61,945 nucleotides of DNA from Bacillales bacterium (GTDB lineage: Bacteria > Bacillota_I > Bacilli_A > RFN20 > CAG-449): assembly GCA_029006735.1 (NCBI GenBank), contig JAQXGN010000035.1, positions 1 to 61,945 on the forward strand, in the 5' to 3' direction. The translations under genes and the position numbers were made by a program. The notes beneath the pieces were generated by a model that saw nothing but the letters and a program-made list of their open reading frames with translations, did not search any database and was not told the DNA's origin. Below, piece after piece: positions 33,577 through 48,147 of this stretch (positions are counted from its first letter, which is position 1; each line of letters opens with the position of its first letter).

Positions 33577-35364
33577 TTATTTATTAGATTTCATTTCTTT
33601 AAAAGACGGTACTTTTTTTGCCCCATAACCTGATTTTTTCTTATTTCGATATGCTGCAAATGGATCAGTCTTTTCTTCTTTTGGAGTGTTTGGAGTTTCT
33701 TCCACTACTTGATTTTTATTTAATTCTTTAAAAGATGGTACTTTTTTTGCTCCATATCCTTTATTTTTCTTATTACGATATTGAGCAAATGGATCATTCT
33801 TTTTAATAGGTTCATTTGTTTTTTCTTCAACGTCAAGTTTTCCTTGCTCTTTAAAGGAAGGAACTTTTGTTGCAGAATGTTTACCATGATTCATTCCTCG
33901 ATATGCAGCAAAAGGATCGTTCTTTTTAGGTTCTTCTTTACCAATATCGATTTGTGGTGCAATATCTTCTAATAAGATTTCTTCAACAACTTGTTGTTCT
34001 TCCACTTTTTCTTCTTTTATTTCTTCCTGTAAAGAATTATTCTCTTTATCATTTAAGACTTCTTCATTGTTAATATCTTTTTCTTCATTTTCTTCTACTT
34101 GTGTATTCTTTAAAATATAGTCTTCCACATCTTGAGATACGCCTGAGGAATCTTCACTAACATTTTCATCCGCTTCATATTTTTCGAAGAATAATTCATC
34201 TTCAATAGAAGGATTAACATCAGTTACATCATCTTCTTCCACAACTTCAATAACTGGTTCTTCTTCTAAAATAATATCGACATCTTCATCAGAAATATAA
34301 CGTACTTCTCTTTCTGTAATTGGTTTTGTGACTTCTTCGTTATCTTTAGTAATACCTAAATCAGTAACGCCATAACCAATTTCTTCTAAATAAGCCTTCT
34401 TTTGTCGATCAAATAATCCTTTTTTATCGTTTTCTTTATATGCGTCAATATTAGAGATTGATGTTGCTGGTGTATTTTGCTCTTCTTCGACAATAGAAAT
34501 AAAATCGTCCGCTTTTACAGAAGTTTCATCTTTATATTTTTTGTGTAATCGGTATTCAATTTTTTCCATTTTCTCAATATAACGGCGTTTAGCTAATTTA
34601 CTGCGACGTCTTGCTAATGGCTTCTTAAAGATAAGACCAATTAAGAAGAAAACTAATAACCATAAACCAAGAATGATAATTGAGCCAACAAATAATAAGA
34701 CATATTCAACCCAAGGTACATTATTTAAAAATGATGTAACTAATTTAATATACATACCCATTCTATATGTAAAGAAATCATGAATTGATGCAGGGGTTGC
34801 AATTGAAGATAAAAATGGCTCGATATATTTATTTGATATATCTAATGTTCCATTAAGTTTGGACCCATTAACTTCGCATATTACTTTATCAAAACGAATA
34901 ATAATGAATAATGCGATTAATAAAACTGGGAATATAAAAGAAATTACAGTGCCTTTAGGAAATCTACGAATAAAATTCTTCTCATCTAATTTTTCTTTTT
35001 CTAAGTTAGTTAATTGATACTTAGGTACAATTTCTCTTCTTTTTCTCTCATTCTTTTTTCTAAATACTATCGTTAATGGCCCAAAAATAGCATAATAAAT
35101 AACAATACAAATCACATTAACAATCAATAATCCAATAATTTTTACAATAACCGGATATGCTAAATAATTATTAATAGTTAATAACACACTTACTCTCCAT
35201 CCTAAGGAAAGAAGTTTTCTTCCTGCCCAAGCCATTTGAGAGATAACGATAATACTATTAATACTATCTAGATATAGTGAAAGAATTGCAAAGAAAAGAA
35301 CAACACTTTCAAACAATAAAATAAGCCCTAAAAACAATTTTTTCTTCATAATTTTATTCTCCAT
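33577..35364 (-). CDS. Hypothetical membrane protein with long acidic tail and three C-terminal repeats
   Basis: About 4 TM segments in the first 245 aa, a D/E-rich region, and three copies of DPFA.YR...KVPSFKE. Confidence 0.85.
   Translation of the reverse strand: MENKIMKKKLFLGLILLFESVVLFFAILSLYLDSINSIIVISQMAWAGRKLLSLGWRVSVLLTINNYLAYPVIVKIIGLLIVNVICIVIYYAIFGPLTIVFRKKNERKRREIVPKYQLTNLEKEKLDEKNFIRRFPKGTVISFIFPVLLIALFIIIRFDKVICEVNGSKLNGTLDISNKYIEPFLSSIATPASIHDFFTYRMGMYIKLVTSFLNNVPWVEYVLLFVGSIIILGLWLLVFFLIGLIFKKPLARRRSKLAKRRYIEKMEKIEYRLHKKYKDETSVKADDFISIVEEEQNTPATSISNIDAYKENDKKGLFDRQKKAYLEEIGYGVTDLGITKDNEEVTKPITEREVRYISDEDVDIILEEEPVIEVVEEDDVTDVNPSIEDELFFEKYEADENVSEDSSGVSQDVEDYILKNTQVEENEEKDINNEEVLNDKENNSLQEEIKEEKVEEQQVVEEILLEDIAPQIDIGKEEPKKNDPFAAYRGMNHGKHSATKVPSFKEQGKLDVEEKTNEPIKKNDPFAQYRNKKNKGYGAKKVPSFKELNKNQVVEETPNTPKEEKTDPFAAYRNKKKSGYGAKKVPSFKEMKSNK
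33595..33918 (-). repeat. Three intragenic ~24-aa repeats
   Basis: DPFAAYRGMNHGKHSATKVPSFKE / DPFAQYRNKKNKGYGAKKVPSFKE / DPFAAYRNKKKSGYGAKKVPSFKE. Confidence 0.95.
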
Positions 35365-35452: not shown

Positions 35453-36757
35453 TTATAATGCTTTTCTTAAATACATTTCTTCAATCTCATATTTTCCATT
35501 TATATATCGGCCATAATCTTTGTAATTTGATTCAGGATCTGATAAATATATCGTTCTTTCTTCATCTTTTTTTATTACTGCAGCATATTCTTGATCAATT
35601 AGTTTTTCTTGATACAAAGATAAATCTCCCTTCAAAGTTAAATAGAGGTTCATATAAGTCAAATCAACTAATTTTTTCTTAGATACAATACTTGAAATAG
35701 TAAATGTTTCATTATTATATCCTTCCTTATAATCATAATACAAAGAACGATTTATTACCTGATTGTCATGTATAAATGAATAAAAATTTGTATTATTATT
35801 TACACCAAATGTTCTAATTTGAGATACGTTGCATGCTCCACTAGAAGACACTATACCAACAGGAAAAACTTTATTGGTTTTATCATAGATAATGATATTA
35901 TTTTCATCAACAAATGAATCACTCATAAAGATAATTTCTCCTGTTTCTGCATAAAAATACCCTTTTGTTAGATTTGCATTAATAAAATCTTGATATACTT
36001 CTTGTAAATAATAACTATTGAATAAAGAGTTTAAATCTAGGTAATTTGCTTCTAAGGATAAATCATCAACTAAAGAAACTACTTCTTGATCAACATTTAA
36101 TGTTGCATAATATTTGTCATCTTCTTTATCTAATTTTAATTTCAAATTATTTTCTTTTTTACAAGCTTGTTTAATTAACTCTAAATCCGCTTTATTTTTA
36201 TTGTCTAATAAAGGATCAATATTCTTATTTAAACTATAATTTAATGTAAAATTTGTTTTCCAAAAACTATTTATTAACCCAGAATATAAAGAATAAGTTT
36301 CATTTAAATTCGTTTTATCTAAAGCATCAGATAAGATATTATATAATCTTTCTTCGATTTCAATTTTTTCATTAATATGATTGTTTATATAGGAAATCCC
36401 TTTTGTTTTATAATTATAATCCGGTGTTGAATCAATAAGTGAATAAACCTTTTTTGCTTTTTGAATAAATAAATCCCTTACTAGTTTATTAGTATTTTTG
36501 ACTTGTGCTTTATCCCCATCAACATAATACATTAATCGAATATCATTATTATATCCAATATAATCATTATCATTATATAATGATAAATCAAAATTTACCC
36601 AACCAGAATTCTCTAATCCTTTAGTTGAGCAAGAATAAACGCCAAAGCCAATCGCACCAATTGCAATTATAAAAGAAACGACAAAAATAACTATACGTAA
36701 AGGTATATGTTTATCACTAATATTTAGTTTAATGTCTTCGTTTTTTTTCTTTTTCAT
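35453..36757 (-). CDS. Membrane-anchored, divergent ApbE (flavin transferase)-like protein
   Basis: N-terminal TM. ISYINNHINEKIEIEERLYNILSDALD...YSG.I..FW and LDLNSLFNSY...L..G follow the ApbE pattern, but the DLG(A/G)IAKG motif is degenerate. Confidence 0.55.
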   Translation of the reverse strand: MKKKKNEDIKLNISDKHIPLRIVIFVVSFIIAIGAIGFGVYSCSTKGLENSGWVNFDLSLYNDNDYIGYNNDIRLMYYVDGDKAQVKNTNKLVRDLFIQKAKKVYSLIDSTPDYNYKTKGISYINNHINEKIEIEERLYNILSDALDKTNLNETYSLYSGLINSFWKTNFTLNYSLNKNIDPLLDNKNKADLELIKQACKKENNLKLKLDKEDDKYYATLNVDQEVVSLVDDLSLEANYLDLNSLFNSYYLQEVYQDFINANLTKGYFYAETGEIIFMSDSFVDENNIIIYDKTNKVFPVGIVSSSGACNVSQIRTFGVNNNTNFYSFIHDNQVINRSLYYDYKEGYNNETFTISSIVSKKKLVDLTYMNLYLTLKGDLSLYQEKLIDQEYAAVIKKDEERTIYLSDPESNYKDYGRYINGKYEIEEMYLRKAL

Positions 36758-36809: not shown

Positions 36810-37757
36810 TTAGCTATTTCTTTCTTTAATATATTTTTCAATTTCACTTTTACTACCAAAAACAAAATGTTCATTACCAATATTAACTAATTCTGGTTCT
36901 TCACAAGAATAATCATGAATTGATGGATCATAGACGAATAATGTTTTATTTTTTTCAATCAAAGGATCTGGAACAGGGATTGCCGAAATCAATGATTTCG
37001 TATATGGATGTAAAGGATGTAAGAATAATTCTTCTGATGTTGCAACTTCAACAATTCGGCCTTTATGAATAACTGCGATTCGATCCGAAATAAAGCGAAC
37101 AATTGATAAATCGTGTGCAATAAACAAGTAAGTAATTCCTTTCTCTACTTGGAATTTTTTTAATAAATTTAATACTTGTGCACGAATAGAAACATCTAAT
37201 GCGGAAATAGGTTCATCTGCAATAATGAGTTCTGGTTCCATAACAATTGCTCTTGCTAATCCAACACGTTGACGTTGTCCACCAGAAAATTCATGTGGAT
37301 AACGAGTTAAGTGTTCAGGAAGCAAACCTACTTCTTTAATAACTTTTTCAATTTTCTCAATACGTTCTTTTTCATTTTTATATAAATGGAAATTATATAA
37401 ACCTTCAGAAATAATATATTCAATAGTTGCTCTTTCATTTAATGATGCTGCAGGATCTTGGAATACCATTTGTATGTGACGAATAACATTTCTTTCTTCT
37501 TTTTCAGATATTTTTCCTGATATTCTATTCCCATGGAAAAGAATCTCTCCTTTAGCACAAGGATTAATACGCATAATCGCACGTCCTATTGTAGTTTTTC
37601 CCGAACCCGATTCTCCAACAATAGAAAATGTTTCTCCTTTATATATATCAAACGATGCATTTGTTACTGCTCTAAAAGCGTTTTTCCCTCTTCCAAAGAC
37701 TATATCAACATTCTTGACAGATAGAAGGACTTCTTTTTCAACTTTATTATTTTCCAT
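36810..37757 (-). CDS. oppF: Oligopeptide ABC transporter ATPase OppF/AmiF
   Basis: [37 protein letters not shown]. Confidence 0.95.
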
Positions 37758-37767
37758 AGTAATCCTC

Positions 37768-39519
37768 CTAATTCTTTTGATTATAAACACTATTTAATAG
37801 TGTTTCATGTAAGTTTTGAATGTTCTTTGGTTTTTCTACTTTTGGTGCTCGTGGATCACATAACCATGTTTTTGCAAAGTGAGTTTCACTTATTTTAAAC
37901 ATTGGAGGTTCTTTGACTAAATCAACTTTCATACAATATGGATTACGTGGAGCAAAAGCATCACCAACAATTTTATTGTATAAAGAAGGTGGAGTTCCCT
38001 CAATAGAATAAAGTTTTTCACCAATAACTGATAGTTGTGGTAATGAAGAAAGTAATGCCCAAGTATAAGGATGTTTTGGATCATAGAATATTTCTTCAAC
38101 TAATCCATATTCAATTACTTGACCTGCATATAAAACTGCAACTCTTTCTGCAACATTCGCAACAACACCTAAGTCGTGAGTAATATATACTGTAGTAAAC
38201 TTATATTCGTTTTGTAACTTCTTAATCAATTTTAATATTTGTGCTTGAATAGTAACATCGAGTGCAGTTGTTGGTTCATCACAAATTAAAATCTTTGGAC
38301 GACATGATAACGCAATCGCGATAACAATTCTTTGTCGCATACCGCCTGAATATTGGAAAGGATAATCATCAAATCTTTTTTCAGGGTTAGTAATACCTAC
38401 ATCACGCATAATTTCGATTGCCTTTTCTTTTGCAACTCCCAAAGAAACATGTTGATGTTTAATAATAACGTTAGTAATTTGTTTACCAATTGTAATAATT
38501 GGGTTTAAAGATGTCATTGGATCTTGGAATACTGTTGCAATTCTTGTGCCACGAATCTTTTGCCAATCACGTGGATTATCAACTTTTGCTAAATTAATAA
38601 TTGCTTTGCCATGTAAAGAACCATCTTCTAATGTTTCTAAGTATTCTACATGAAAACAACAAGTATTAAAAATCTCATGTACATTATCTTTATTTGATAA
38701 ATCAACGCCTCTAATCATTGATTTTTTGAATTGTCTTAATATCTTAAAAGCATATGTGAATTGTTGAGAAAAAGAATATCTGCTTGTAGATAATAATATT
38801 TCTTTTGCAAAGATTTCATTTCTTGTAATGCAAGAATTATTTACATCTTTTTTATATGCTTCTTTTAATTCTGCTTTTAAAGATTTTAATGTTGATGAAT
38901 AGTATTTTTGGAATTCAACATCTTTTTTATATGCGGCTTTTTTATTTTTTGCTAATACAATTATAGACTTATCTAATGTTTTAATTTCCTTTTTTAAAAT
39001 AGCAATCTCTTTTTTAAGATTAACAATTATTTCTTTATCTTTTGATTTATCATAAAGCATTATTTCATTTTGTTTTTCGACAATTTGATTATTCTTTACT
39101 TGAATCTCTTTTAAAATAGGTTCTTTTTCTTCTTCTTGAAGATTAATCTTAAAAAGCCTTTCCTTTTTTAAATCACTAATTTTTTGATAAAGTGTAGCTC
39201 CATTTTCAAAATGAGAATACTTATTCAATTGTTTATGAATAAATAATAGAAATTTGTTATTCACTTTTGCATGAGTATCAGATAATTCATCATCATTTAA
39301 GAAAATATCCCCTGCAGAAATGAAACCATTAGAATCATTCATACCAGAAAATGTTTTTGTTAAAACTGACTTACCTGATCCAGATTCACCAACGATTGCG
39401 ATAGTTTCTCCATCATATATATCTAAGTCGACACCTCTAATCGCGGTTAAGAATCTTCCTCTAACTTTAAATTTTAATTCTACACCTCTTAGAGATAATA
39501 ATGTTTTTCTATTTTCCAT
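37768..39519 (-). CDS. oppD: Oligopeptide ABC transporter ATPase OppD/AmiE with large insertion
   Basis: [52 protein letters not shown]. Confidence 0.95.
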
Positions 39520-39533
39520 ACTCTTATTACCTC

Positions 39534-40511
39534 CTATGACATATGTGTTCTTGGATCTGAAGCATCACCAACATTTTGACCAACAACGTATAAAACAACT
39601 GAAATTATCGCAGAAACAATAACTGCTGGCCAGAATCTCCATGGAGATGACATCCATACTTTTTGTCCATCATTAATCATACGACCAAGAGAAGGAATAT
39701 TCGCAGATAAACCAACGTTAATATATGATAAGAATACTTCATAAGAAATATATGATGGTAATTCAGATGCAAGTAATGTAACAATAACTGAAATCATAAA
39801 TGGAAGAATATTTTTAAAGACAATTGTAAAAATATTTGTTCCTAAGCATCTTGAAGCTAAATTATATTCTCTATCACGAATGATGATAACTTGCGTACGA
39901 ATAAAATATGCAATTCCGAGCCAACCAGTGATTGATAAAGCTAAAACAAAGCTCCAAAAACCTGTACCAATAATATATGCTAAAACTGTAATTAATAAAA
40001 TATAAGGGATATTACCAATGATGTTATAAATTTGATTCATAATAGTATCAAATGTTTTTGATAATCCCCAAACTGCACCGAGAATAACACCAATTGTCAT
40101 ATTAATAATTGTACAAATTGAAGATAATGCAAGTGATGTTCTTGAACCAGTCCATAAATAATCAAAAACAGATCCACCACCACCATCAGTACCGAATATC
40201 CACGATAATTTAAATCCAAACATTTTAATTGCGTTAATTGGACTTAAATTAAATGAATCTAAGTTAGATACATTTGGATTGTGTTCTGGTCCACCTGGAG
40301 AAATCATTGGATAGAATATTGACATAACAATAATAACTGCAAGTAAAGCTAAAAATACCCAGTTAGATTTTTTTCTAAAGAATACTCTACCTACTGATTT
40401 CCAATATGAATATCTAGGAGCAGTAATTTTTTCTGAATCAGAAGATGATTGAGGCACTAAAACAAATAAATCATCTAAGCCATCATTCATCATAATGCTT
40501 TGATTTTCCAT
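39534..40511 (-). CDS. oppC: Oligopeptide ABC permease OppC/AmiD
   Basis: YSYWKSV, FGTD, RDREYNLASRCLG, DASDPRTH. Confidence 0.95.
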   Translation of the reverse strand: MENQSIMMNDGLDDLFVLVPQSSSDSEKITAPRYSYWKSVGRVFFRKKSNWVFLALLAVIIVMSIFYPMISPGGPEHNPNVSNLDSFNLSPINAIKMFGFKLSWIFGTDGGGGSVFDYLWTGSRTSLALSSICTIINMTIGVILGAVWGLSKTFDTIMNQIYNIIGNIPYILLITVLAYIIGTGFWSFVLALSITGWLGIAYFIRTQVIIIRDREYNLASRCLGTNIFTIVFKNILPFMISVIVTLLASELPSYISYEVFLSYINVGLSANIPSLGRMINDGQKVWMSSPWRFWPAVIVSAIISVVLYVVGQNVGDASDPRTHMS

Positions 40512-42490
40512 TATTTTCTACCTCCTGTAAATGAAATTCTAGGATCAACAATAGTCAACATAATATCACCAAGAATTAATGATGTAATTGAAAGAATTGA
40601 ATAAAAGAATGTTAATCCTAAAATAGTACCATTATTGTGTTCTTGAATTGCTGTTGTTAATAATCCACCAGTACCTGGAACACCATAAACACTTTCTGTA
40701 ATAAAAGCGCCACCAAGACAACCAATAATTGCACCTGGAATACCATGAACAATAGGAATCATCGCATTCTTTGCAATGTGTTTTGTAAATATTTCACCAT
40801 CACTTAAGCCTTGAGATTTAGCAAATTTAACATAATCTGAATTTGATTGGTCAATCATATATCTTCTTACCCATCTCATTTCACCTGCAAGAGAAGGTAA
40901 TACTAAGGAAATAACTGGTAAAACATAATATAACCATCCAGTGCCTTCAGCAAAACTTGTTGGGAGATTTAATAATCGTCCAAGTGATCTAAAGATGTAA
41001 ATGTAAGCAAGTGAAGGAACTGCAATCATAAAGATAATATAACCAATACCTAATTTATCTGCTAATCTATCTTTTTTTCGTGCCATTAATATACCTAAAG
41101 GAATACCGACAAAATAAGCAATTATTGTCGCTGCAATACCCATAATAAATGAGTATCCGACTTTAGGCATTTTATTATAATAAGAAATACAATTCATATA
41201 ACGATCGCCAAATAAAGCATATTCTTGTTCATTAATTAATAAAGAAGAATTAAATGATGCAGTATGGAAATTATATGCTGATTCGCTATATTCATCTGTC
41301 CCTAATTGAGTTGGGTATTGTTGTTCCTTAGTAACTAATGCCCCTTGACCTTCATTAGAAAAGATAACATCTGTTACATTTTGTCCTTTAGTAGGACCAG
41401 ATAATGATGTTCCTAAACTAAAATGAATAAAGTTTTGATGAATAAATGGGAATTGATCATCAAAATATAATAAATATTTATGTGTAGTACCGCTTCCGAC
41501 AATCGCAGGCATATGCGAATATTCATCCCAAATTAATTTAATGCCCTTTTCTTTAATAGGAAATTCATCGCCACGAGAAAATACTGTAAAATTATTAACA
41601 TAGGTGCTTAAAACAGCTGCATCAGATTCATAATGAGGATTCTTATTTTCATCATAATCACAATAGCATATAAAACGATATTCACCTGCCCCTGTAGTAA
41701 TAACTTGATTATTTTCAAAAACTAAAGAAACATTTTTATCTTTATCAATGTAAGCAATATTCCAAAAGAAATAACCATCAGAATCTAAATTATCTTCTGT
41801 AATACTCATATTAATAAAATAAGCCATTTCTGTATCTGTTCTTGGGCTAACAATCTCTTCATTTGAAGATAATTTGAAAGAATTTGCTCCCCAATATTGA
41901 TTGAAATTTTCCCATTCATTGATGTCGCTAACTAAATAGTATCCTTTGCCTGGTACAGCACCATTTTCTTCAACCATTTTATCAACATCATTTACTGTTT
42001 CAAAAGAAAACATGTTTTTAAAGAATTTACCAATACGAATAAATGGATTGCTATCTTTATAAGCATATAGATATGGTTGGCAACCATTTTTAATATCTCC
42101 ACGTCTATCATAATCAGCTACTAATCTTTTAACTGTATATCCTTTTGACTCGCAATATGATGAAAACTTTGCAATATATGGATTATTTTCATCATCTTCT
42201 TGATCATTAGGAATAAATAAAGCATCAGATAATTCCCTATCAGTTAAATCATCGCCATATTCACTAACAACAAAATCAGAAAAAGTTATTAAATCTATGT
42301 AATCGTATTTTTCATATTGACTATCTTTGTAGTACTCTAAGTCATTTTCACGTAATTTGGAAATATTTTGATCTCCATTAAAAATGACATCTCTTTTTGT
42401 AAAAGTAAATAGTAATAAAATCATTACAAAAACGATGCAAACAAGAGAAAAGATTGAAAATAATATTCTCTTCAATAGATATTTTCTCAT
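40511..42490 (-). CDS. oppB: Oligopeptide ABC permease OppB/AmiC with enlarged extracellular region
   Basis: MRKYLLKR start, HKYLLYFD..FPFIHQNF (AmiC-like), RRYMIDQ..SDYVKFA, DPRIS. Confidence 0.93.
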   Translation of the reverse strand: MRKYLLKRILFSIFSLVCIVFVMILLLFTFTKRDVIFNGDQNISKLRENDLEYYKDSQYEKYDYIDLITFSDFVVSEYGDDLTDRELSDALFIPNDQEDDENNPYIAKFSSYCESKGYTVKRLVADYDRRGDIKNGCQPYLYAYKDSNPFIRIGKFFKNMFSFETVNDVDKMVEENGAVPGKGYYLVSDINEWENFNQYWGANSFKLSSNEEIVSPRTDTEMAYFINMSITEDNLDSDGYFFWNIAYIDKDKNVSLVFENNQVITTGAGEYRFICYCDYDENKNPHYESDAAVLSTYVNNFTVFSRGDEFPIKEKGIKLIWDEYSHMPAIVGSGTTHKYLLYFDDQFPFIHQNFIHFSLGTSLSGPTKGQNVTDVIFSNEGQGALVTKEQQYPTQLGTDEYSESAYNFHTASFNSSLLINEQEYALFGDRYMNCISYYNKMPKVGYSFIMGIAATIIAYFVGIPLGILMARKKDRLADKLGIGYIIFMIAVPSLAYIYIFRSLGRLLNLPTSFAEGTGWLYYVLPVISLVLPSLAGEMRWVRRYMIDQSNSDYVKFAKSQGLSDGEIFTKHIAKNAMIPIVHGIPGAIIGCLGGAFITESVYGVPGTGGLLTTAIQEHNNGTILGLTFFYSILSITSLILGDIMLTIVDPRISFTGGRK

Positions 42491-42594
42491 ACTTATCCTC
42501 CTTTTTATCACTATAGATTTTAATATAATAAAAATCTATTGTCTATAATTCCTTAAAAAATAAATAATTAATGGTCTATTATAGCCAAATAATG

Positions 42595-42621
42595 AAAAAT
42601 GGGAGAATAAATTCTCCCATT
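42595..42621 (-). terminator. Intrinsic terminator between oppA and oppB
   Basis: Perfect stem AATGGGAGAAT/ATTCTCCCATT plus T-run. Confidence 0.85.
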
Positions 42622-42640: not shown

Positions 42641-44806
42641 TTAATATAATCCACAAACTTTGGTCATATTTCCTTCACCATTTGATAAGAATGTGTCTAG
42701 ATATGAAATTGGATCACCAAAGTCAGGACCCCAACCTGAGCCATAATATGTATCATAGTTGACATCTTTTCCTTGTTCAGCATAATATGAAGCAGATAAA
42801 TATGCATTTTGATCAGAAGTTTGTAAAACATTTACTTTTACATATGGTTTTAATGCTTCTTCAATGCTATTTTTATAAATATTACCTTGGTTGATATTTT
42901 CAGTTTCAGTTGCTAATACGATTGTATCAATATAAATTGGCTTGTCTGCTGTAATACCAAGTTCTTGAGCAGCTTTTGCAATATACTTTTTAGCTAAGTC
43001 TACATTGTACCAACCATCGATAGCATCAGCAACCTTAATTTCTCCACCATAATATTCATCAATAAAGAATTGTACTAATTCACCATATTCAGTTTTTGCT
43101 GGGAAAGTCTTAGAAATATTATTTTTTGAATCAGTATACTTAACTTCTTTTTCTAAGGATAAGAAGTTTGGAGAAGTATACATATTTCTTAAATTAGCTG
43201 TAGCTAATTCTTTACCTTTAACCGCACCATTCCATGTAGTTCTATCAAATGCATAGTTCAATGCTTTTCTAAAGTTTCTATTTACTAAAGCATTTCTTGT
43301 TGCTTCTTTTTGTTCTGCAGTTTTTGTTGAATTTAATTCTTTTGGATAACCTGAAACAGAATATGCTTGTCTATTTAAATTAATCGCAGATAAAAATGTT
43401 GTTGCAGCAGTTGAAGAAATGAATGCATTTTTTTCAAAATATCCATCTTTTTTAGCGTCATTAATGATTGTATCTGTTAAAGTAACACTAATATATTTAT
43501 GATTGATAACATCAGAATAGTAATCTTTTGCACTTGAGTTATTATCATAAACATAAACGATAGAATCAATCTTTCTATTTGCTTTATCATAATAATGTTC
43601 ATTAGCTTTTAATGATATTTTGTTATTATCTGTAATTTCATCAAAATAAAAAGCAGAGTTATAAAGAATAGATTGTGGGTTACTTGAAATACCATATTTA
43701 TAATTAGCAGTATTATTTTTAGCAGTATTATATTCTGTCTTTCCTAAAGCACCACCCATTGAACGATAGAATGTTTCATTTAATGGTAAGAATGTAGAAT
43801 AAGTCAACATTGTCATGAAATATGGAACTTCTTTTTCTAATGTGATTTGTAATTCATACTCACCATTAGCTTTCATACCAACTTTACCGAAATCTGTAGT
43901 TTTTCCTGCCATATATTCTCTTGCATTTTTAACAACGCCAGATACTAATTGACCTAAACCTGATTCAGAACCTGCGTCTAACATATGTCTAAATCCAGTA
44001 ACAAAGTCTTGTGCAGTTACCTTTCCATAAATTGTTCCATCTGCTTTAACCCAATTAACATCATCTCTTAATTGGAATGTATATACTAATTTGTCATTAG
44101 ATATTGTATGACTTTTTGCAATAGCATATTGTTGATTACCTAAGTTATCATATTTCATTAATCCTTCTAATCCATTAACAATATAAACGCTATCTGAACT
44201 CTTTGAAGTTGCTAAAATATCTAAACTTTGTGGAGCCGCAGAATAAACACTCTTATATTCACGATTTAAAGTATGTCCTTGGCTAAGTAAATATTCAGAA
44301 GGATCATATTTTGTACCATTTTTTAATGCATCGTTCCACATTTTTTCCATATGATCTCTTTCTGCTTTAGTAACTAATGCATCTTTAATTAAAACCATAT
44401 TTTCAACTCTATCAGAATCTAAGCCCCATTGAACGTATGGAGTTGATCTATATGCTGAGTGAGTTAAAGCATAAGAGCCACCAGAAGTTGATGTTGGCAT
44501 GAAAATATTTGAATTTAATAATTCTGCCTCTGCTCTAGCATAACTTAAATATCTTTTTTCATTATCAGTGATATCTCTTGCTTCATCAATCATACCCCAA
44601 TAAGTATCTAAAATATCATCATAAATAGTATCATCATCTGTCATATCTACAGCTGGTGCATCTTCAATATCAATTTCAATTGGATTATCAGATGGCTTAT
44701 TATTTGAAGGATTGTTTGATGTTGTAACATCTCCTCCATTACCTCCACATCCAACTAATGCGAAAATTGATAAAATTGAAAGTAAACATATTTTTTTATT
44801 TTTCAT
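42641..44806 (-). CDS. oppA: Oligopeptide-binding lipoprotein (AmiA/AliA-like), circularly permuted
   Basis: Lipobox LVGC; YTFQLRDDVNW, VTAQDFVTG, NFRKALNYAFDR, GWGPDFGDPISYLD. Confidence 0.93.
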   Translation of the reverse strand: MKNKKICLLSILSIFALVGCGGNGGDVTTSNNPSNNKPSDNPIEIDIEDAPAVDMTDDDTIYDDILDTYWGMIDEARDITDNEKRYLSYARAEAELLNSNIFMPTSTSGGSYALTHSAYRSTPYVQWGLDSDRVENMVLIKDALVTKAERDHMEKMWNDALKNGTKYDPSEYLLSQGHTLNREYKSVYSAAPQSLDILATSKSSDSVYIVNGLEGLMKYDNLGNQQYAIAKSHTISNDKLVYTFQLRDDVNWVKADGTIYGKVTAQDFVTGFRHMLDAGSESGLGQLVSGVVKNAREYMAGKTTDFGKVGMKANGEYELQITLEKEVPYFMTMLTYSTFLPLNETFYRSMGGALGKTEYNTAKNNTANYKYGISSNPQSILYNSAFYFDEITDNNKISLKANEHYYDKANRKIDSIVYVYDNNSSAKDYYSDVINHKYISVTLTDTIINDAKKDGYFEKNAFISSTAATTFLSAINLNRQAYSVSGYPKELNSTKTAEQKEATRNALVNRNFRKALNYAFDRTTWNGAVKGKELATANLRNMYTSPNFLSLEKEVKYTDSKNNISKTFPAKTEYGELVQFFIDEYYGGEIKVADAIDGWYNVDLAKKYIAKAAQELGITADKPIYIDTIVLATETENINQGNIYKNSIEEALKPYVKVNVLQTSDQNAYLSASYYAEQGKDVNYDTYYGSGWGPDFGDPISYLDTFLSNGEGNMTKVCGLY

Positions 44807-44952
44807 TTTTTACCTCCCTATAATTGAAAATTTTTTTCATTATTAAACAAACATTAAATAAATTTAATGTAATTATATGAAACAATATTTTCATGAGAAA
44901 AGCAATAAAAATAGATGATTTAATAAAAAAGATTGATATTAATCAGTTTTTC

Positions 44953-45558
44953 TTATAAATTAATACCAATCTTATTTTGGTTATATAAAATATCAATAAT
45001 TAAATTTGAATAAAATCCCGCTTCTACAAAATATATTTCGTTATCATCTTGTAATAATTTTAATTTGATTTGATCAAGAATAAGAACTTCTTTTTCTACC
45101 TTCAATTCATCAAGCACAATTACATTAGTTTCTTGAAATAGTTTTGTAAGACCTAAATATTTTTTGATTTTATTTTTTGATTTAACAATAAGTGTAATTC
45201 TTTTTGAAAATATCTCCATTGGTAAGTCATCATTATTAAACCCATTCATTATTTCACAATTATTATTTTTGATTCTTTTATATAAATTCATATTTTGTTT
45301 ATTATTCGAGAAAAGCAAACTACTATTTGTGATAGCGACTTTAGTTTGAAATGCATAATAATTAATAATATTATTAGTAATCTTAGCCGATGGAAATTCT
45401 TCTTCTAAAATTTCTATTAACTTTCTTTTATATCTATTTTTGACAAAAAAGAACTTTGATTCTACGTATTTTAACGCATAAAAACTAGCCTCATCAAACT
45501 TAAAAGTTGAAAAGCTTAATCCGTTATACAAATAATCTTTTAATACACTTTCTTTCAT
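44953..45558 (-). CDS. Hypothetical protein (weak GT-D fold-like similarity)
   Basis: 2 nt downstream of smpB. C-terminal IYFVEAG...IID.L....KIGINL recalls GT-D fold domains. Confidence 0.55.
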   Translation of the reverse strand: MKESVLKDYLYNGLSFSTFKFDEASFYALKYVESKFFFVKNRYKRKLIEILEEEFPSAKITNNIINYYAFQTKVAITNSSLLFSNNKQNMNLYKRIKNNNCEIMNGFNNDDLPMEIFSKRITLIVKSKNKIKKYLGLTKLFQETNVIVLDELKVEKEVLILDQIKLKLLQDDNEIYFVEAGFYSNLIIDILYNQNKIGINL

Positions 45559-45560
45559 AA

Positions 45561-46013
45561 TTAATACATAACAGCTTTTGATGCTTCTCTTTTTTGATCT
45601 CTTTCTTTAATCGTTTCTCGTTTATCAAACAATTTTTTACCTTTAGCTAAAGCGACTTCTAGTTTTGCTTTACCCTCTTTTAAATATACTTTTGTACATA
45701 CAACAGTAAATCCTTTTTCTTGGATTTTTTGTTGAAATTTAAGTATTTCTTTTTTATGTAATAATAGTTTACGGGTTCTTAATGGTTCATGATTAAAAAT
45801 ATTACCATTTCGATAAACCGCAATATTCATTCCTAAAATATACGCTTCTCCATTCTTGATTAATACATATGAATCATTGAGTGAACAGCCATTTTCTTTT
45901 AAAGATTTTATTTCTGTTCCTTTAAGTTCAATACCTACTTCTAAAAAATCAGATAAAAAATACTCAAAAAAAGCTTTTTTATTATTAGTGATAACTTTTA
46001 CGTTTTCTGCCAT
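45561..46013 (-). CDS. smpB: SsrA-binding protein
   Basis: NKKA, GTEIKS, RKLLLHKKEI, GKKLFDKRE. Confidence 0.99.
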   Translation of the reverse strand: MAENVKVITNNKKAFFEYFLSDFLEVGIELKGTEIKSLKENGCSLNDSYVLIKNGEAYILGMNIAVYRNGNIFNHEPLRTRKLLLHKKEILKFQQKIQEKGFTVVCTKVYLKEGKAKLEVALAKGKKLFDKRETIKERDQKREASKAVMY

Positions 46014-48147
46014 GCTTTTTTACCCCTTTCTTTTTAGAAGACATCTTTATTCTAGATGTTTTGCTTTTATTAATCAATTTAAATGTGATTTCATGTGTTT
46101 TGACATTGACCTTTAAAACAAGTATTTCAACTTTATCACCTAATGAGTATACTTTATTAGTCATACGTCCATAAGCGCACATATAATTCTCATCAAAAAT
46201 ATAATAATCATCATCCATTTCTTCAAATAAGATAAGACCATCAATACCATTATCGAGTTCAACAAACATTCCTTTATTAACCATCCCGTTAATAAAGCCT
46301 GAATATATATTACCTATTTTTGTCGCCATATATTTTGCCGATTCTAAATCATCGACTTCACGTTCAATCGCGATTGCTCTTCTTTCTTTAATTGATGTGT
46401 TTTCTGCAATAAAAGCAATTTCTTTTTCAAAATCTGGACCATAAGAAATATTGCCATTTACTAAATATCGATCAATTAAACGATGGACTAATAAATCCGG
46501 ATATCTTCTTATTGGTGAAGTAAAATGAGTATAAGATTTACTTGCTAATCCATAATGCCCTTTATTAGATTCGCTATATCTAGCTTTAGCTAAGCTCCTT
46601 AATAACATAATAGAAATGATTTTTTTTATATCTTGATTATCAATACTTATTAAATAGTTGGATAACTCTTTTGGCGTAACTGTTAAAGGAGAAAAATTAG
46701 TTTTATATCCCAAATGGGTGGATAATTTAATAAAAGCATCCATTTTCTTTGATTTTGGTTGTTCATGGATACGATAAATAAATGGTAATTCCATCGCTTC
46801 AATCGTTTCTGCAACTTGCTCGTTTGCAGTAATCATTAGGTCTTCAATTAGTTGTTCACCTAAACCTTGTTCACGAATAATTACATCAATTGGATTACCT
46901 TTTTCATCACATTTAAAAAGAATTTCATTAGATTCAATATCTAACGATCCTTGATTTTTTCTTCTTTTCCTTATTTTTGTTGCCACTTCATTTAATAAAT
47001 AAATTGTTTGATCAATATCGCTAGAAAGATGTTCTAAACAAGGATCTTTTGATAACAATCTATTTACATAATCATATGTTAATCTAGCATGAGAATTAAT
47101 TATACCTTTAGTAATCCTACTTGATAGAATATTACCATATGGATCAACAGTAAAAATACAAGAAGTAACAAGACGATCAACATGTGGGTTTAATGAACAA
47201 ATTCCATTTGATAATTCAAATGGGAGCATTGGAACAACTCTATCAGTCGCATAAATCGATGTTCCTCTAGATAGTGCTTCTTTATCTAATGGAGAATCAT
47301 CTGGAACATAATGAGCAACATCAGCAATATGAACACCTACTTGATATCCTTCTATACACCTTTTTACTTCAACTGCATCATCAAAATCTTTTGCATCATT
47401 ACCATCAATAGTAACGATAAGATGATCCGTAAAATCCTCTCTATTTTCTTTTTCTTCTTCACTTACAAAAGAAGGTATATTTTTAACTTGTTTTTTTACT
47501 TCTTCTGGGAATTCTATATCTGCACCATATTTATAGATGATACTACTAATATCTACTCCTGGATCGTTCTTATTGCCAATTACTTCAATAATATCAACAT
47601 AAATTGTTCGTCTAGTGATTTTTGTTGGTATTCCAATTGCGATAAATCCATCCAATAAAACTAATGATGTCGGATTTATCATAAAAACAACATCTTTAGA
47701 CGCTACATCTTTTACATCAAGTATTAATTGACCATAATAGTCTTTAATTTCACCAACAAATTTATTTCTTGTTCTTTTTATAATCGAGAAAACAGTATAT
47801 TCATCCTTTAATGATTGTCTATCTTTCATTAACCATACTTCATCATCTAAAAAAGCAGAATTAAGATTTTCATTATCAATATATACATCTTCATCTATAG
47901 ATATATTAGCAAAAGAAAAGTTTTCCTTTATTGATACAATTCTTCCCTTAATCAAATGAAGTGATTCTGGAGTATAGTATTCATGTTTTTTTTGAACTAT
48001 TTTACCTTCAGCAACTAATTCATTTAATGCATCGATAGTTTCTTGGCTTGCTGAAAAAATCTCAAATATTAATTTATCTGAGAGTGAATGTTTATTTAAC
48101 ATTTGATAAATTCTTTCTTTTAGCATGTTCTCTATATTTTTCTCCAA
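45985..48147 (-). CDS. rnr: Ribonuclease R
   Basis: TIDGNDAKDFDDA, HIADV, HYGLA..YTHFTSPIRRYPD, S1 domain and basic tail. The start may be ATG 48126. Confidence 0.97.
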   Translation of the reverse strand: MEKNIENMLKERIYQMLNKHSLSDKLIFEIFSASQETIDALNELVAEGKIVQKKHEYYTPESLHLIKGRIVSIKENFSFANISIDEDVYIDNENLNSAFLDDEVWLMKDRQSLKDEYTVFSIIKRTRNKFVGEIKDYYGQLILDVKDVASKDVVFMINPTSLVLLDGFIAIGIPTKITRRTIYVDIIEVIGNKNDPGVDISSIIYKYGADIEFPEEVKKQVKNIPSFVSEEEKENREDFTDHLIVTIDGNDAKDFDDAVEVKRCIEGYQVGVHIADVAHYVPDDSPLDKEALSRGTSIYATDRVVPMLPFELSNGICSLNPHVDRLVTSCIFTVDPYGNILSSRITKGIINSHARLTYDYVNRLLSKDPCLEHLSSDIDQTIYLLNEVATKIRKRRKNQGSLDIESNEILFKCDEKGNPIDVIIREQGLGEQLIEDLMITANEQVAETIEAMELPFIYRIHEQPKSKKMDAFIKLSTHLGYKTNFSPLTVTPKELSNYLISIDNQDIKKIISIMLLRSLAKARYSESNKGHYGLASKSYTHFTSPIRRYPDLLVHRLIDRYLVNGNISYGPDFEKEIAFIAENTSIKERRAIAIEREVDDLESAKYMATKIGNIYSGFINGMVNKGMFVELDNGIDGLILFEEMDDDYYIFDENYMCAYGRMTNKVYSLGDKVEILVLKVNVKTHEITFKLINKSKTSRIKMSSKKKGVKKHGRKRKSYH

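Follow-up and report, generated by a model that had tools for sequence, protein, structure and literature searches.

A natural circular permutation in an AmiA/Ali-type oligopeptide-binding protein encoded in a Bacillales genome

Introduction

The two-lobe fold of substrate-binding proteins is a textbook example of conservation, and much work has been devoted to the streptococcal Ami/Ali receptors. Here we describe an oligopeptide-binding protein (OppA) from a Bacillales bacterium (assembly GCA_029006735.1, contig JAQXGN010000035.1). Its gene lies in a stretch of 61,945 nucleotides that was analysed as a whole and is called the window below. The open reading frame (ORF) at 42641–44806 on the minus strand codes for 721 amino acids (aa), and the peptides quoted from it in a preliminary description of this DNA are present in its translation. 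By descent the protein is a member of cluster C / family 5 of substrate-binding proteins. In topology it is permuted, with the piece that forms the C-terminal module of its canonical relatives standing in front. Throughout, the canonical order is written body-A-B and that of the 721-aa protein A-B-body.

Results and discussion

The oppA gene and the segments of its product

The gene was divided into the following elements on the basis of its translation, of alignments with canonical relatives and of the predicted local distance difference test (pLDDT) values of a structure model.

44747–44806, minus strand: signal peptide and lipobox, residues 1–20 (...ALVGC, Cys20), from the translation; pLDDT below 50
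44639–44746, minus strand: disordered tether, residues 21–56 (36 aa, rich in N, S, P and D); pLDDT below 50 to residue 40, reaching 90 by residues 50–60
44405–44638, minus strand: segment A, residues 57–134, homologous to canonical residues ~531–608
44267–44404, minus strand: segment B and new connector, residues 135–180; pLDDT 94–98; the module profile reaches AliC 625
42644–44266, minus strand: body, residues 181–721, covering domains I and II and the greater part of III in the cluster C fold; ends within domain III at ...CGLY
42722–42736, minus strand: GWGPD motif, G691-W692-G-P694-D695, aligned to GWGPD of AmiA/AliB/AliC
42641–42643, minus strand: TAA stop codon after ...KVCGLY

Domain III is closed by two helices of segment A, which further contains the second hinge crossover and the final strands of domain I. 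In the whole-chain model, DSSP assigns helices to residues 58–77 and 82–98 and strands to residues 102–104 and 112–115, with pLDDT values of 95–98. Segment B proper (residues 135–163) carries an α19-like helix (residues 147–163), which is joined to strand 1 of domain I by a connector of approximately 17 residues (164–180, YDPSEYLLSQGH) with a short helix at 169–175. The connector consensus YDPxxYLxxKGH is conserved in alignment A2, which comprises 80 N-terminal modules of the family. Cys20, recognized by the familiar lipobox pattern, is at least 90% conserved in the family alignment A1 (63 sequences).

Swapped-order homology to the pneumococcal Ami/Ali receptors

In a Pfam search, SBP_bac_5 (PF00496) alone was assigned, to residues 227–712 (E 4.3e-35, 122 bits compared with a cut-off of 32.4), and no Pfam model matched residues 1–180. 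When the protein was compared with all PDB chains by phmmer, the pneumococcal receptors AmiA, AliC, AliB and AliD were the best matches (E 9e-75 to 2e-57), the next match following at 2.6e-24. Each of these four matches showed two stretches in swapped order. For the body, query residues 181–709 correspond to AmiA (8a42) SEQRES positions 13–500 (independent E value, i-E, 3e-69). For the module, query residues 66–158 correspond to AmiA 524–619 (i-E 0.0099), AliC 515–624 (1.3e-6) and AliB 515–608 (0.001). By blastp against the canonical streptococcal protein P0031 (652 aa), query residues 66–157 aligned with 541–632 (E 3.6e-10) and residues 175–720 with 26–527 (E 3e-75).

A profile of the module was built from alignment A2 and run on 177,635 distinct PDB sequences. 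It matched only five of them, in the C-terminal part every time: AliC 510–625 (2.1e-17), AliB 514–614 (1.3e-12), AmiA 519–626 (3.1e-12), AliD 503–613 (3.7e-11) and DppE 451–489 (0.0049). The match to DppE lies in the first helices of the module, which shows that the moved piece includes core elements of the fold and is not merely an appendage.

Judged by these alignments, the swapped-order homology is real and far beyond chance. Residues 57–178 are equivalent to the canonical C-terminal module and residues 181–721 to the N-terminal ~500 residues of canonical proteins; both segments homologous to the reference are present, their order is swapped and neither is duplicated, as in a circular permutant. 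The collinear order of cluster C / family 5, with the N-terminus at strand 1 of domain I, is absent from the 721-aa protein. Its closest relatives are Ali/AmiA rather than other OppA/DppA proteins, and a tree of the bodies places the permuted clade as the sister group of canonical Ali-like proteins. The match of the module profile extends to AliC SEQRES 625 and AmiA 626, and hence across α19, although this helix is shorter here and internal instead of C-terminal.

The preliminary description had proposed that an AmiA/Ali-type protein is naturally circularly permuted and now has its C-terminal module in front, a proposal that is backed by the sequence and profile evidence given here and by the fold evidence given below. 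The break that it placed directly after G-L-Y is supported by the same alignments, the protein ending with ...KVCGLY-TAA, and the split alignment with Ami/Ali proteins that it suggested as a check gave the two stretches in swapped order. Its statement that the last ~100 residues had moved was correct as to the move, which is evident from the swapped-order matches, and too low as to the size, the moved piece comprising approximately 120 residues (57–178/180).

The gene in independent assemblies

The window belongs to a draft genome of 65 contigs, and the unusual order might accordingly be an artefact of assembly or gene calling, with a 5′ module misjoined to a 3′-truncated oppA, or the gene might be a broken remnant. 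For this reason, three DNA runs from other studies and one metatranscriptome run were compared with the gene stretch. The whole gene is contained in single contigs of two other studies (run X9, 13,540 nt; run X8, 2,448 nt), and in run X4 both junctions are covered, by two contigs. No assembly joint was seen within the gene in any of the four runs compared. Misassembly at either junction, which the preliminary description had named as grounds for abandoning its proposal, was thus looked for and excluded. Furthermore, 13 pig-gut metagenome runs contain, near-identically, at least half of the sampled words of the gene stretch, and 208 homologs from ENA, JGI, NCBI and Logan share the order (see below). 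Among the 36 strain differences listed in the coding sequence, 25 are synonymous and 11 non-synonymous, which indicates purifying selection. The contigs from the metatranscriptome lie on 43102–43357, 44215–44550 (crossing the module-to-body junction) and 44584–44836; they demonstrate presence in an RNA library and are not proof of transcription.

The gene is also framed by plausible expression signals.

44872–44899, minus strand: promoter-like site TTCTCA, 16-nt spacer, TATAAT, upstream of oppA; 10 of 12 positions agree in a consensus scan
44813–44818, minus strand: ribosome-binding site GGGAGG, 6–7 nt ahead of the ATG at 44806; read from the sequence
42598–42621, minus strand: terminator-like hairpin with a 10-bp stem and a T-rich tail, between oppA and oppB, 19 nt past the stop codon

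The promoter-like site is a pattern match only, such sites in the region not being more frequent than in shuffled sequences. Two terminator-like sites were found compared with 0.5 expected in shuffles, one hairpin being counted on both strands. With TAA following ...KVCGLY and the hairpin 19 nt further on, there is no C-terminal continuation hidden downstream. Taken together, the contigs that span the gene, its recurrence in other runs, the many homologs with the same order, the strong ribosome-binding site, stop codon and terminator-like hairpin and the 25:11 ratio of synonymous to non-synonymous differences render an artefact or a remnant extremely improbable. In the strain of run X9, the 5′ untranslated region contains a 9-nt insertion (ATTTTTTTC) at 44829, which separates the promoter-like site further from the ribosome-binding site.

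Distribution of the permuted order

A word-indexed search returned 59 homologs. Of the 20 closest, 19 share both the order and the end point of the query, a search for homologs with such an end having been suggested in the preliminary description; the other 39 are collinear with canonical P0031. With HMMER, 1.84 billion cluster representatives were searched exhaustively, which yielded 4,872 matches at E ≤1e-3 and 164 at E ≤1e-30. We collected 320 sequences and sorted them with hidden Markov models (HMMs) of the segments built from A1. The order A-B-body was found in 208 (192 full and 16 partial), the canonical order (body-A-B or body-A) in 78 full proteins and one partial one, and a third order, B-body-A, in three. 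The remaining 30 were fragments or showed other partial orders, and none of the 320 contained two copies of A.

At the level of loci, the best 80 in GTDB species genomes comprised 76 A-B-body ORFs (one of them split) and four that were cut by contig ends; OppB is encoded directly downstream in 77 of the 80. According to record titles, the loci come from Erysipelotrichaceae, Solobacterium, Lachnospiraceae, Oscillospiraceae, Christensenellaceae, Anaerovoracaceae, Avacholeplasma, Anaeroplasmataceae, Sphaerochaetaceae and Treponemataceae, mostly in metagenome-assembled genomes from rumen or gut. The permuted order thus occurs in Bacillota of gut and rumen, in Acholeplasma-like Bacilli and in Spirochaetota. 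Among 300 genomes of the window's class, 34 carry a relative at E ≤1e-30. The permuted form is present in a genome of the same genus (G141), and no match to this query was obtained in four other genera of the window's family. The earlier suggestion that similar permutants may exist unrecognized in other gut Firmicutes was therefore an understatement, with 208 of 320 homologs and 76 of 80 loci showing the order, Spirochaetota included.

Precomputed annotations list PF27766.1 on P0013, P0014 and other permuted members, and this might be a recent model for part of the protein; in our copy of Pfam, which does not contain PF27766.1, P0013 matched SBP_bac_5 only. Several permuted OppA modules are fused to other domains. 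These include an N-terminal Ser/Thr protein kinase (P0121), TIR (P0080) and a double zinc ribbon (P0130), as well as Ig-like or PKD stalks (P0061, P0066), SLH (P0075, P0072, P0085), dockerin (P0111) and BspA-type leucine-rich repeats (LRRs; P0070, P0072, P0108, P0111, P0116). In P0100, a protein of 4,648 aa, a permuted OppA module occurs together with SBP_bac_8. Some of these fusions may be gene-calling artefacts.

Structure model, hinge and tether

The whole chain was modelled by AlphaFold2 with alignment A1 (mean pLDDT 92.2, predicted template modelling score, pTM, 0.90). Values below 50 are confined to residues 1–40, and residues 50–180 reach 90–98. The model has the three-domain, two-lobe fold of cluster C. 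Foldseek ranked AmiA first (E 1.9e-41, TMt 0.73, root-mean-square deviation, rmsd, 2.8 Å over 546 columns). VIA superposed model residues 180–721 on AmiA 33–533 with a Z score of 30.1 and an rmsd of 2.3 Å over 492 aligned residues, and it likewise aligned the body to AliB 32–528 and AliD 29–526; 170 of 996 chains scored Z ≥8. Both programs are sequential aligners, so these matches cover residues 180–721 only and the placement of the module is not visible to them. When the module was folded alone, pLDDT was 85.1 and pTM 0.58, and its strand region fell to 68–83 compared with 95–98 in the whole chain. The strands are thus confident only with the body present, which fits a piece that completes two domains and is not a domain by itself.

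To assign the new chain ends to lobes we used the domain limits of AliD as given in the published description (PMC11192437): domain I, residues 29–63, 191–296 and 583–617; domain II, 64–190; domain III, 297–582. In the same work, α19 (622–652 in AliD) is described as an extra helix packed on lobe 1 and termed an Ali hallmark. With these limits and our alignments, the permuted chain ends at canonical position ~526–533, within domain III, and query residues 58–98 map to about AmiA 536–577. As domain III of AliD spans 297–582, the lipid tether is predicted to exit from lobe 2 (domain III) instead of lobe 1 (strand 1 of domain I). The preliminary description had anticipated this change of the tethered lobe, which follows from the published AliD limits and this mapping. 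It had also expected a changed wiring of the hinge, and this expectation did not hold. The hinge is not rewired, because the chain runs without a break through both inter-lobe crossovers (I to III and III to I). The new ends are located in domain III, and so in lobe 2, and the new join from the α19 helix to strand 1 of domain I falls within lobe 1.

Comparison with canonical receptors

The pneumococcal proteins AmiA, AliA, AliB, AliC and AliD (PDB 8a42, 8qlj, 8qlh, 8qlc) are the best matches of the 721-aa protein in both sequence and structure, and three monomeric Ami/Ali entries gave VIA Z scores of 28.8–30.6 and rmsd values of 2.3–2.5 Å. Common to all of them are the three-domain cluster C fold, the GWGPD motif, an α19 homolog, lipoprotein nature and an ABC peptide permease as partner. 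On the other hand, the 721-aa protein shows A-B-body instead of body-A-B, its ends lie inside domain III and not at strand 1 of domain I and the end of α19, a conserved connector leads from the α19-like helix to strand 1, and its tether is 36 aa long compared with a canonical median of 8. Body identity to the Ami/Ali proteins is only 31–34%. The classical OppA, DppA, MppA and DppE proteins of E. coli, Salmonella, B. subtilis and Listeria (1ola, 3tcf, 8are, 5kzt) have the same cluster C fold (VIA Z 22–25) and belong to the same family PF00496, but they lack α19, are canonical in order and are more distant (phmmer E 1e-13 to 1e-24). No solved structure with the order A-B-body was found in PDB sequence and structure searches.

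A probable permuted receptor at the head of an oppABCDF operon

In the window, oppA heads a complete five-gene oppABCDF set, all on one strand. The other four genes are as follows.

40511–42511, minus strand: oppB permease, 666 aa, with a large extracytoplasmic region; BPD_transp_1 469–660, E 1.7e-31
39534–40511, minus strand: oppC permease, 325 aa; BPD_transp_1, OppC_N
37768–39519, minus strand: oppD ATPase, 583 aa; ABC_tran, oligo_HPY
36810–37790, minus strand: oppF ATPase, 326 aa; ABC_tran, oligo_HPY

The gene is the sole OppA-like gene of this 1.49-Mb, 94%-complete genome. Within the GWGPD motif, G691, W692, P694 and D695 are each at least 90% conserved in A1. In AliB, AliD and AmiA the Trp and Asp of this motif (W500/D503) hold the N-terminus of the bound peptide, as stated in PMC11192437.

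Very probably, the protein serves an OppABCDF oligopeptide importer as its lipid-anchored substrate receptor (OppA), belonging to the AmiA/AliA/AliB-type branch of cluster C, circularly permuted and with its mechanism unchanged; the ligand is presumably an oligopeptide. The chain runs from the lipobox Cys20 through the 36-residue tether to segment A, segment B, the connector and strand 1 of domain I, and then through domains I, II and III to ...GLY. The fold and the Venus-flytrap mechanism would be unaltered: W692 and D695 would hold the N-terminus of the peptide, the lobes would close, and the loaded receptor would dock on OppBC. What has changed is the position of the chain ends, and with it the tether, which is predicted to emerge from lobe 2 and is about four times longer than in canonical relatives.

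Several points weigh against this assignment. Peptide binding and transport are predictions for every member of the family. The location of module residues 57–178 in the same three-dimensional positions as the canonical C-terminal module is inferred. The isolated module ranked AliC (E 0.043, rmsd 14 Å) and AmiA (E 0.29, 10.6 Å) first and second in Foldseek, non-significantly, and a wide VIA search with it returned generic helical hairpins only (Z ≤6.6). The α19 equivalent has ~17 residues (147–163) compared with 30 in AliD, so that B is a shortened version. Finally, the linker from the Cys to the first structural element has a median of 35 aa in A-B-body proteins (interquartile range, IQR, 23–40, n=166) and of 8 aa in canonical ones (IQR 6–14, n=75), an approximately four-fold difference into which the 36 aa of our protein fit; this comparison rests on related, non-independent sequences with HMM-defined element starts and leaves out 26 A-B-body and three canonical proteins without a recognizable lipobox. 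A lipobox-like pattern is present within the first 45 aa of 166 of the 192 full permuted proteins.

The missing structural match of the isolated module, together with the Pfam result of SBP_bac_5 at 227–712 and nothing in residues 1–180, is what one would expect if there were no permutation at all and a C-terminally truncated OppA had acquired an unrelated N-terminal accessory domain. This is nevertheless very unlikely. The module profile matched only the C-terminal parts of AliC, AliB, AmiA, AliD and DppE among the PDB sequences, the modules of close permuted and canonical pairs are 46–58% identical (see below), and the body misses exactly those elements that the module supplies, the model ending at AmiA 533 of 627.

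It is also conceivable that the protein is truly permuted and that its function has diverged, towards a sensor or an adhesin in place of or besides the transport receptor, or that the moved tether alters docking to such a degree that the kinetics of capture and delivery depart materially from those of canonical OppA. The systematically longer tether is in line with this, as are the permuted members fused to the Ser/Thr kinase (P0121), TIR (P0080), zinc ribbon (P0130), SLH, BspA-type LRR, Ig-like and dockerin parts mentioned above. Such fusions suggest that the permuted module is also used beyond simple lipoprotein receptors; if they are real, the permuted receptor would also serve as a sensor or a wall-anchored module. 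For the protein of the window we consider a diverged function improbable, though less so than a mere accessory domain. Its gene stands directly upstream of a same-strand oppB, as in 77 of the 80 loci, the peptide-anchoring W/D motif is at least 90% conserved, and the importer would otherwise be without a receptor, oppA being the sole OppA-like gene of the genome. An ordinary receptor with permuted topology is the reading that we retain.

Some further features of the operon and its surroundings were noted. The window's OppB of 666 aa contains ~140 extra residues (about 178–320), which are extracytoplasmic, compared with the ~530-aa OppB at most permuted loci; elsewhere among the 80 loci the insert occurs in L003 alone (664 aa). 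An enlarged OppB as a companion of permuted OppA was considered and rejected, since most permuted loci have an OppB of ~530 aa. In OppD, ABC_tran matched in two stretches (best 309–418), suggesting an insertion of ~200 residues in the nucleotide-binding domain. Just downstream of oppF lie two ORFs without a Pfam family at E ≤0.001 (33577–35364, minus strand, 595 aa; 35453–36757, minus strand, 434 aa). Upstream of oppA, a 201-aa ORF (44953–45558, minus strand) has no Pfam match, and two further ORFs (45561–46013, minus strand, 150 aa; 45985–48147, minus strand, 720 aa) resemble by eye, and presumably encode, SmpB and an RNase R-type exoribonuclease.

A third order and repeated re-cutting

In P0016 (740 aa) the signal peptide is followed by B, the body and A. 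Its identity to the permuted protein P0073 amounts to 65% (body), 71% (segment A) and 50% (signal peptide), segment A being C-terminal in P0016 and N-terminal in P0073. P0084 and P0078 are related in the same way, and P0208 adds a third B-body-A case. The clusters of P0016, P0208 and P0084 hold 16 distinct sequences: P0016 is single, and in the two others eight of nine members have 722 aa and all six have 694 aa. Their sources are ENA, Logan, JGI and NCBI, and the contigs that carry them reach 132 kb. At the DNA level, no B-body-A gene was found in 15 metagenome loci retrieved with P0016 (five were A-B-body, the others canonical or fragments), and none was found among the 300 genomes of the window's class. 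B-body-A proteins share with A-B-body proteins the ring of segments, the connector from B to the body (YDPAAYL..KGY) and a homologous signal peptide. They differ in that the ring is cut between A and B, with A at the C-terminus and B almost directly after the lipobox, and in being rare. The tether of P0016 (residues ~27–48) contains a direct repeat, SASGLSVSQS twice, at the place where segment A sits in permuted P0073. This repeat could be a scar of the rearrangement.

Additionally, three A-B-body proteins (P0081, P0139 and P0155) sit among canonical ones. P0081 and canonical P0088 are 56% identical in the body and 49% in the module; the corresponding values are 55% and 58% for P0139 and canonical P0164, and 51% and 46% for P0155 and canonical P0151. 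A tree of the bodies only was calculated with IQ-TREE (LG+G4) from 46 rows hand-picked among 155 full-body sequences. Its starred branches force six changes of arrangement, gain and reversal not being distinguishable on this unrooted tree, and FastTree on 122 rows concurs. In approximately unbiased (AU) tests, for which the groups were named after the tree had been seen, a single clade of all non-canonical rows was rejected (p 4.6e-39, log-likelihood difference 368), and so was a clade uniting the three B-body-A rows (p 0.003), whereas P0139 plus P0155 as one clade was not rejected (p 0.11). These phylogenetic data reject one common origin for all non-canonical orders.

The connectors point in the same direction. 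That of the main clade is of the type YLxxxG[HY]T, preceded by Y[DN][PA] in 79 of the 192 full A-B-body proteins, and it is also carried by the B-body-A forms. The connector of P0081 is weakly similar to it. Those of P0139 and P0155 are unrelated to the main clade's, and independent origins are therefore supported.

A circular permutation is usually explained by a duplication or fusion, after which sequence is lost from both ends. Such an origin, by duplication or fusion and subsequent loss of the redundant parts, would be plausible here. Duplication intermediates of the type A-B-body-A-B were absent from all 320 sequences, and no tandem oppA copies were seen within ±3 kb of the 80 loci, so that this route is without direct support in our data.

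Putting these observations together, one may tentatively regard the AmiA/Ali-type receptor as a naturally re-cuttable ring that has been switched several times, with A-B-body as the standard in much of gut and rumen and with the move of the tether under selection. We give this joint interpretation somewhat less than an even chance. It would assume a closed order, body to A to B and back to the body, opened at three places to yield body-A-B, A-B-body and B-body-A. A-B-body would have arisen independently at least twice, the connectors being unrelated, and B-body-A twice from within the permuted clade, in one case between proteins that are still 65–71% identical. A-B-body would be the standard operon-encoded OppA in much of the gut and rumen Clostridia, Erysipelotrichia, Acholeplasma-like Bacilli and Sphaerochaeta/Treponema, and the shift of the tether from lobe 1 to lobe 2, on a four-fold longer leash, would be a selected trait. 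If this is true, the move of the tether would change the presentation of the receptor to OppBC or its reach.

Concluding remarks

Natural circular permutations are known from concanavalin A and favin, saposin and swaposin, some DNA methyltransferases and transaldolases, in which the fold is the same and the chain ends are shifted. The protein described here, a receptor with two lobes, a bending hinge and a lipid tether, differs from these textbook cases in that the cut point decides which lobe is anchored, and in that several cut points and repeated switches occur in one family. A published natural circular permutation of an OppA-type protein was not found in a literature search, most subscription journals being outside its reach; what it returned dealt with engineered biosensors, phage genomes or unrelated subjects.

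The function of the protein is ordinary and its topology unusual; the family is large, is not annotated as permuted and has several cut points. Pfam annotation is confined to the middle of the protein and leaves the N-terminal 180 residues unannotated in hundreds of proteins of gut microbes, and trees or models that assume collinearity will mishandle the permuted members. The natural cut sites and the conserved connector mark where the scaffold tolerates new termini, which is useful for the design of biosensors. The close permuted and canonical pairs, with 51–56% body identity, and the third cut point are good material for studying how permutations arise. For the receptors themselves, the family represents a natural experiment on the effect of chain connectivity and tether position on hinge motion, permease docking and membrane presentation.

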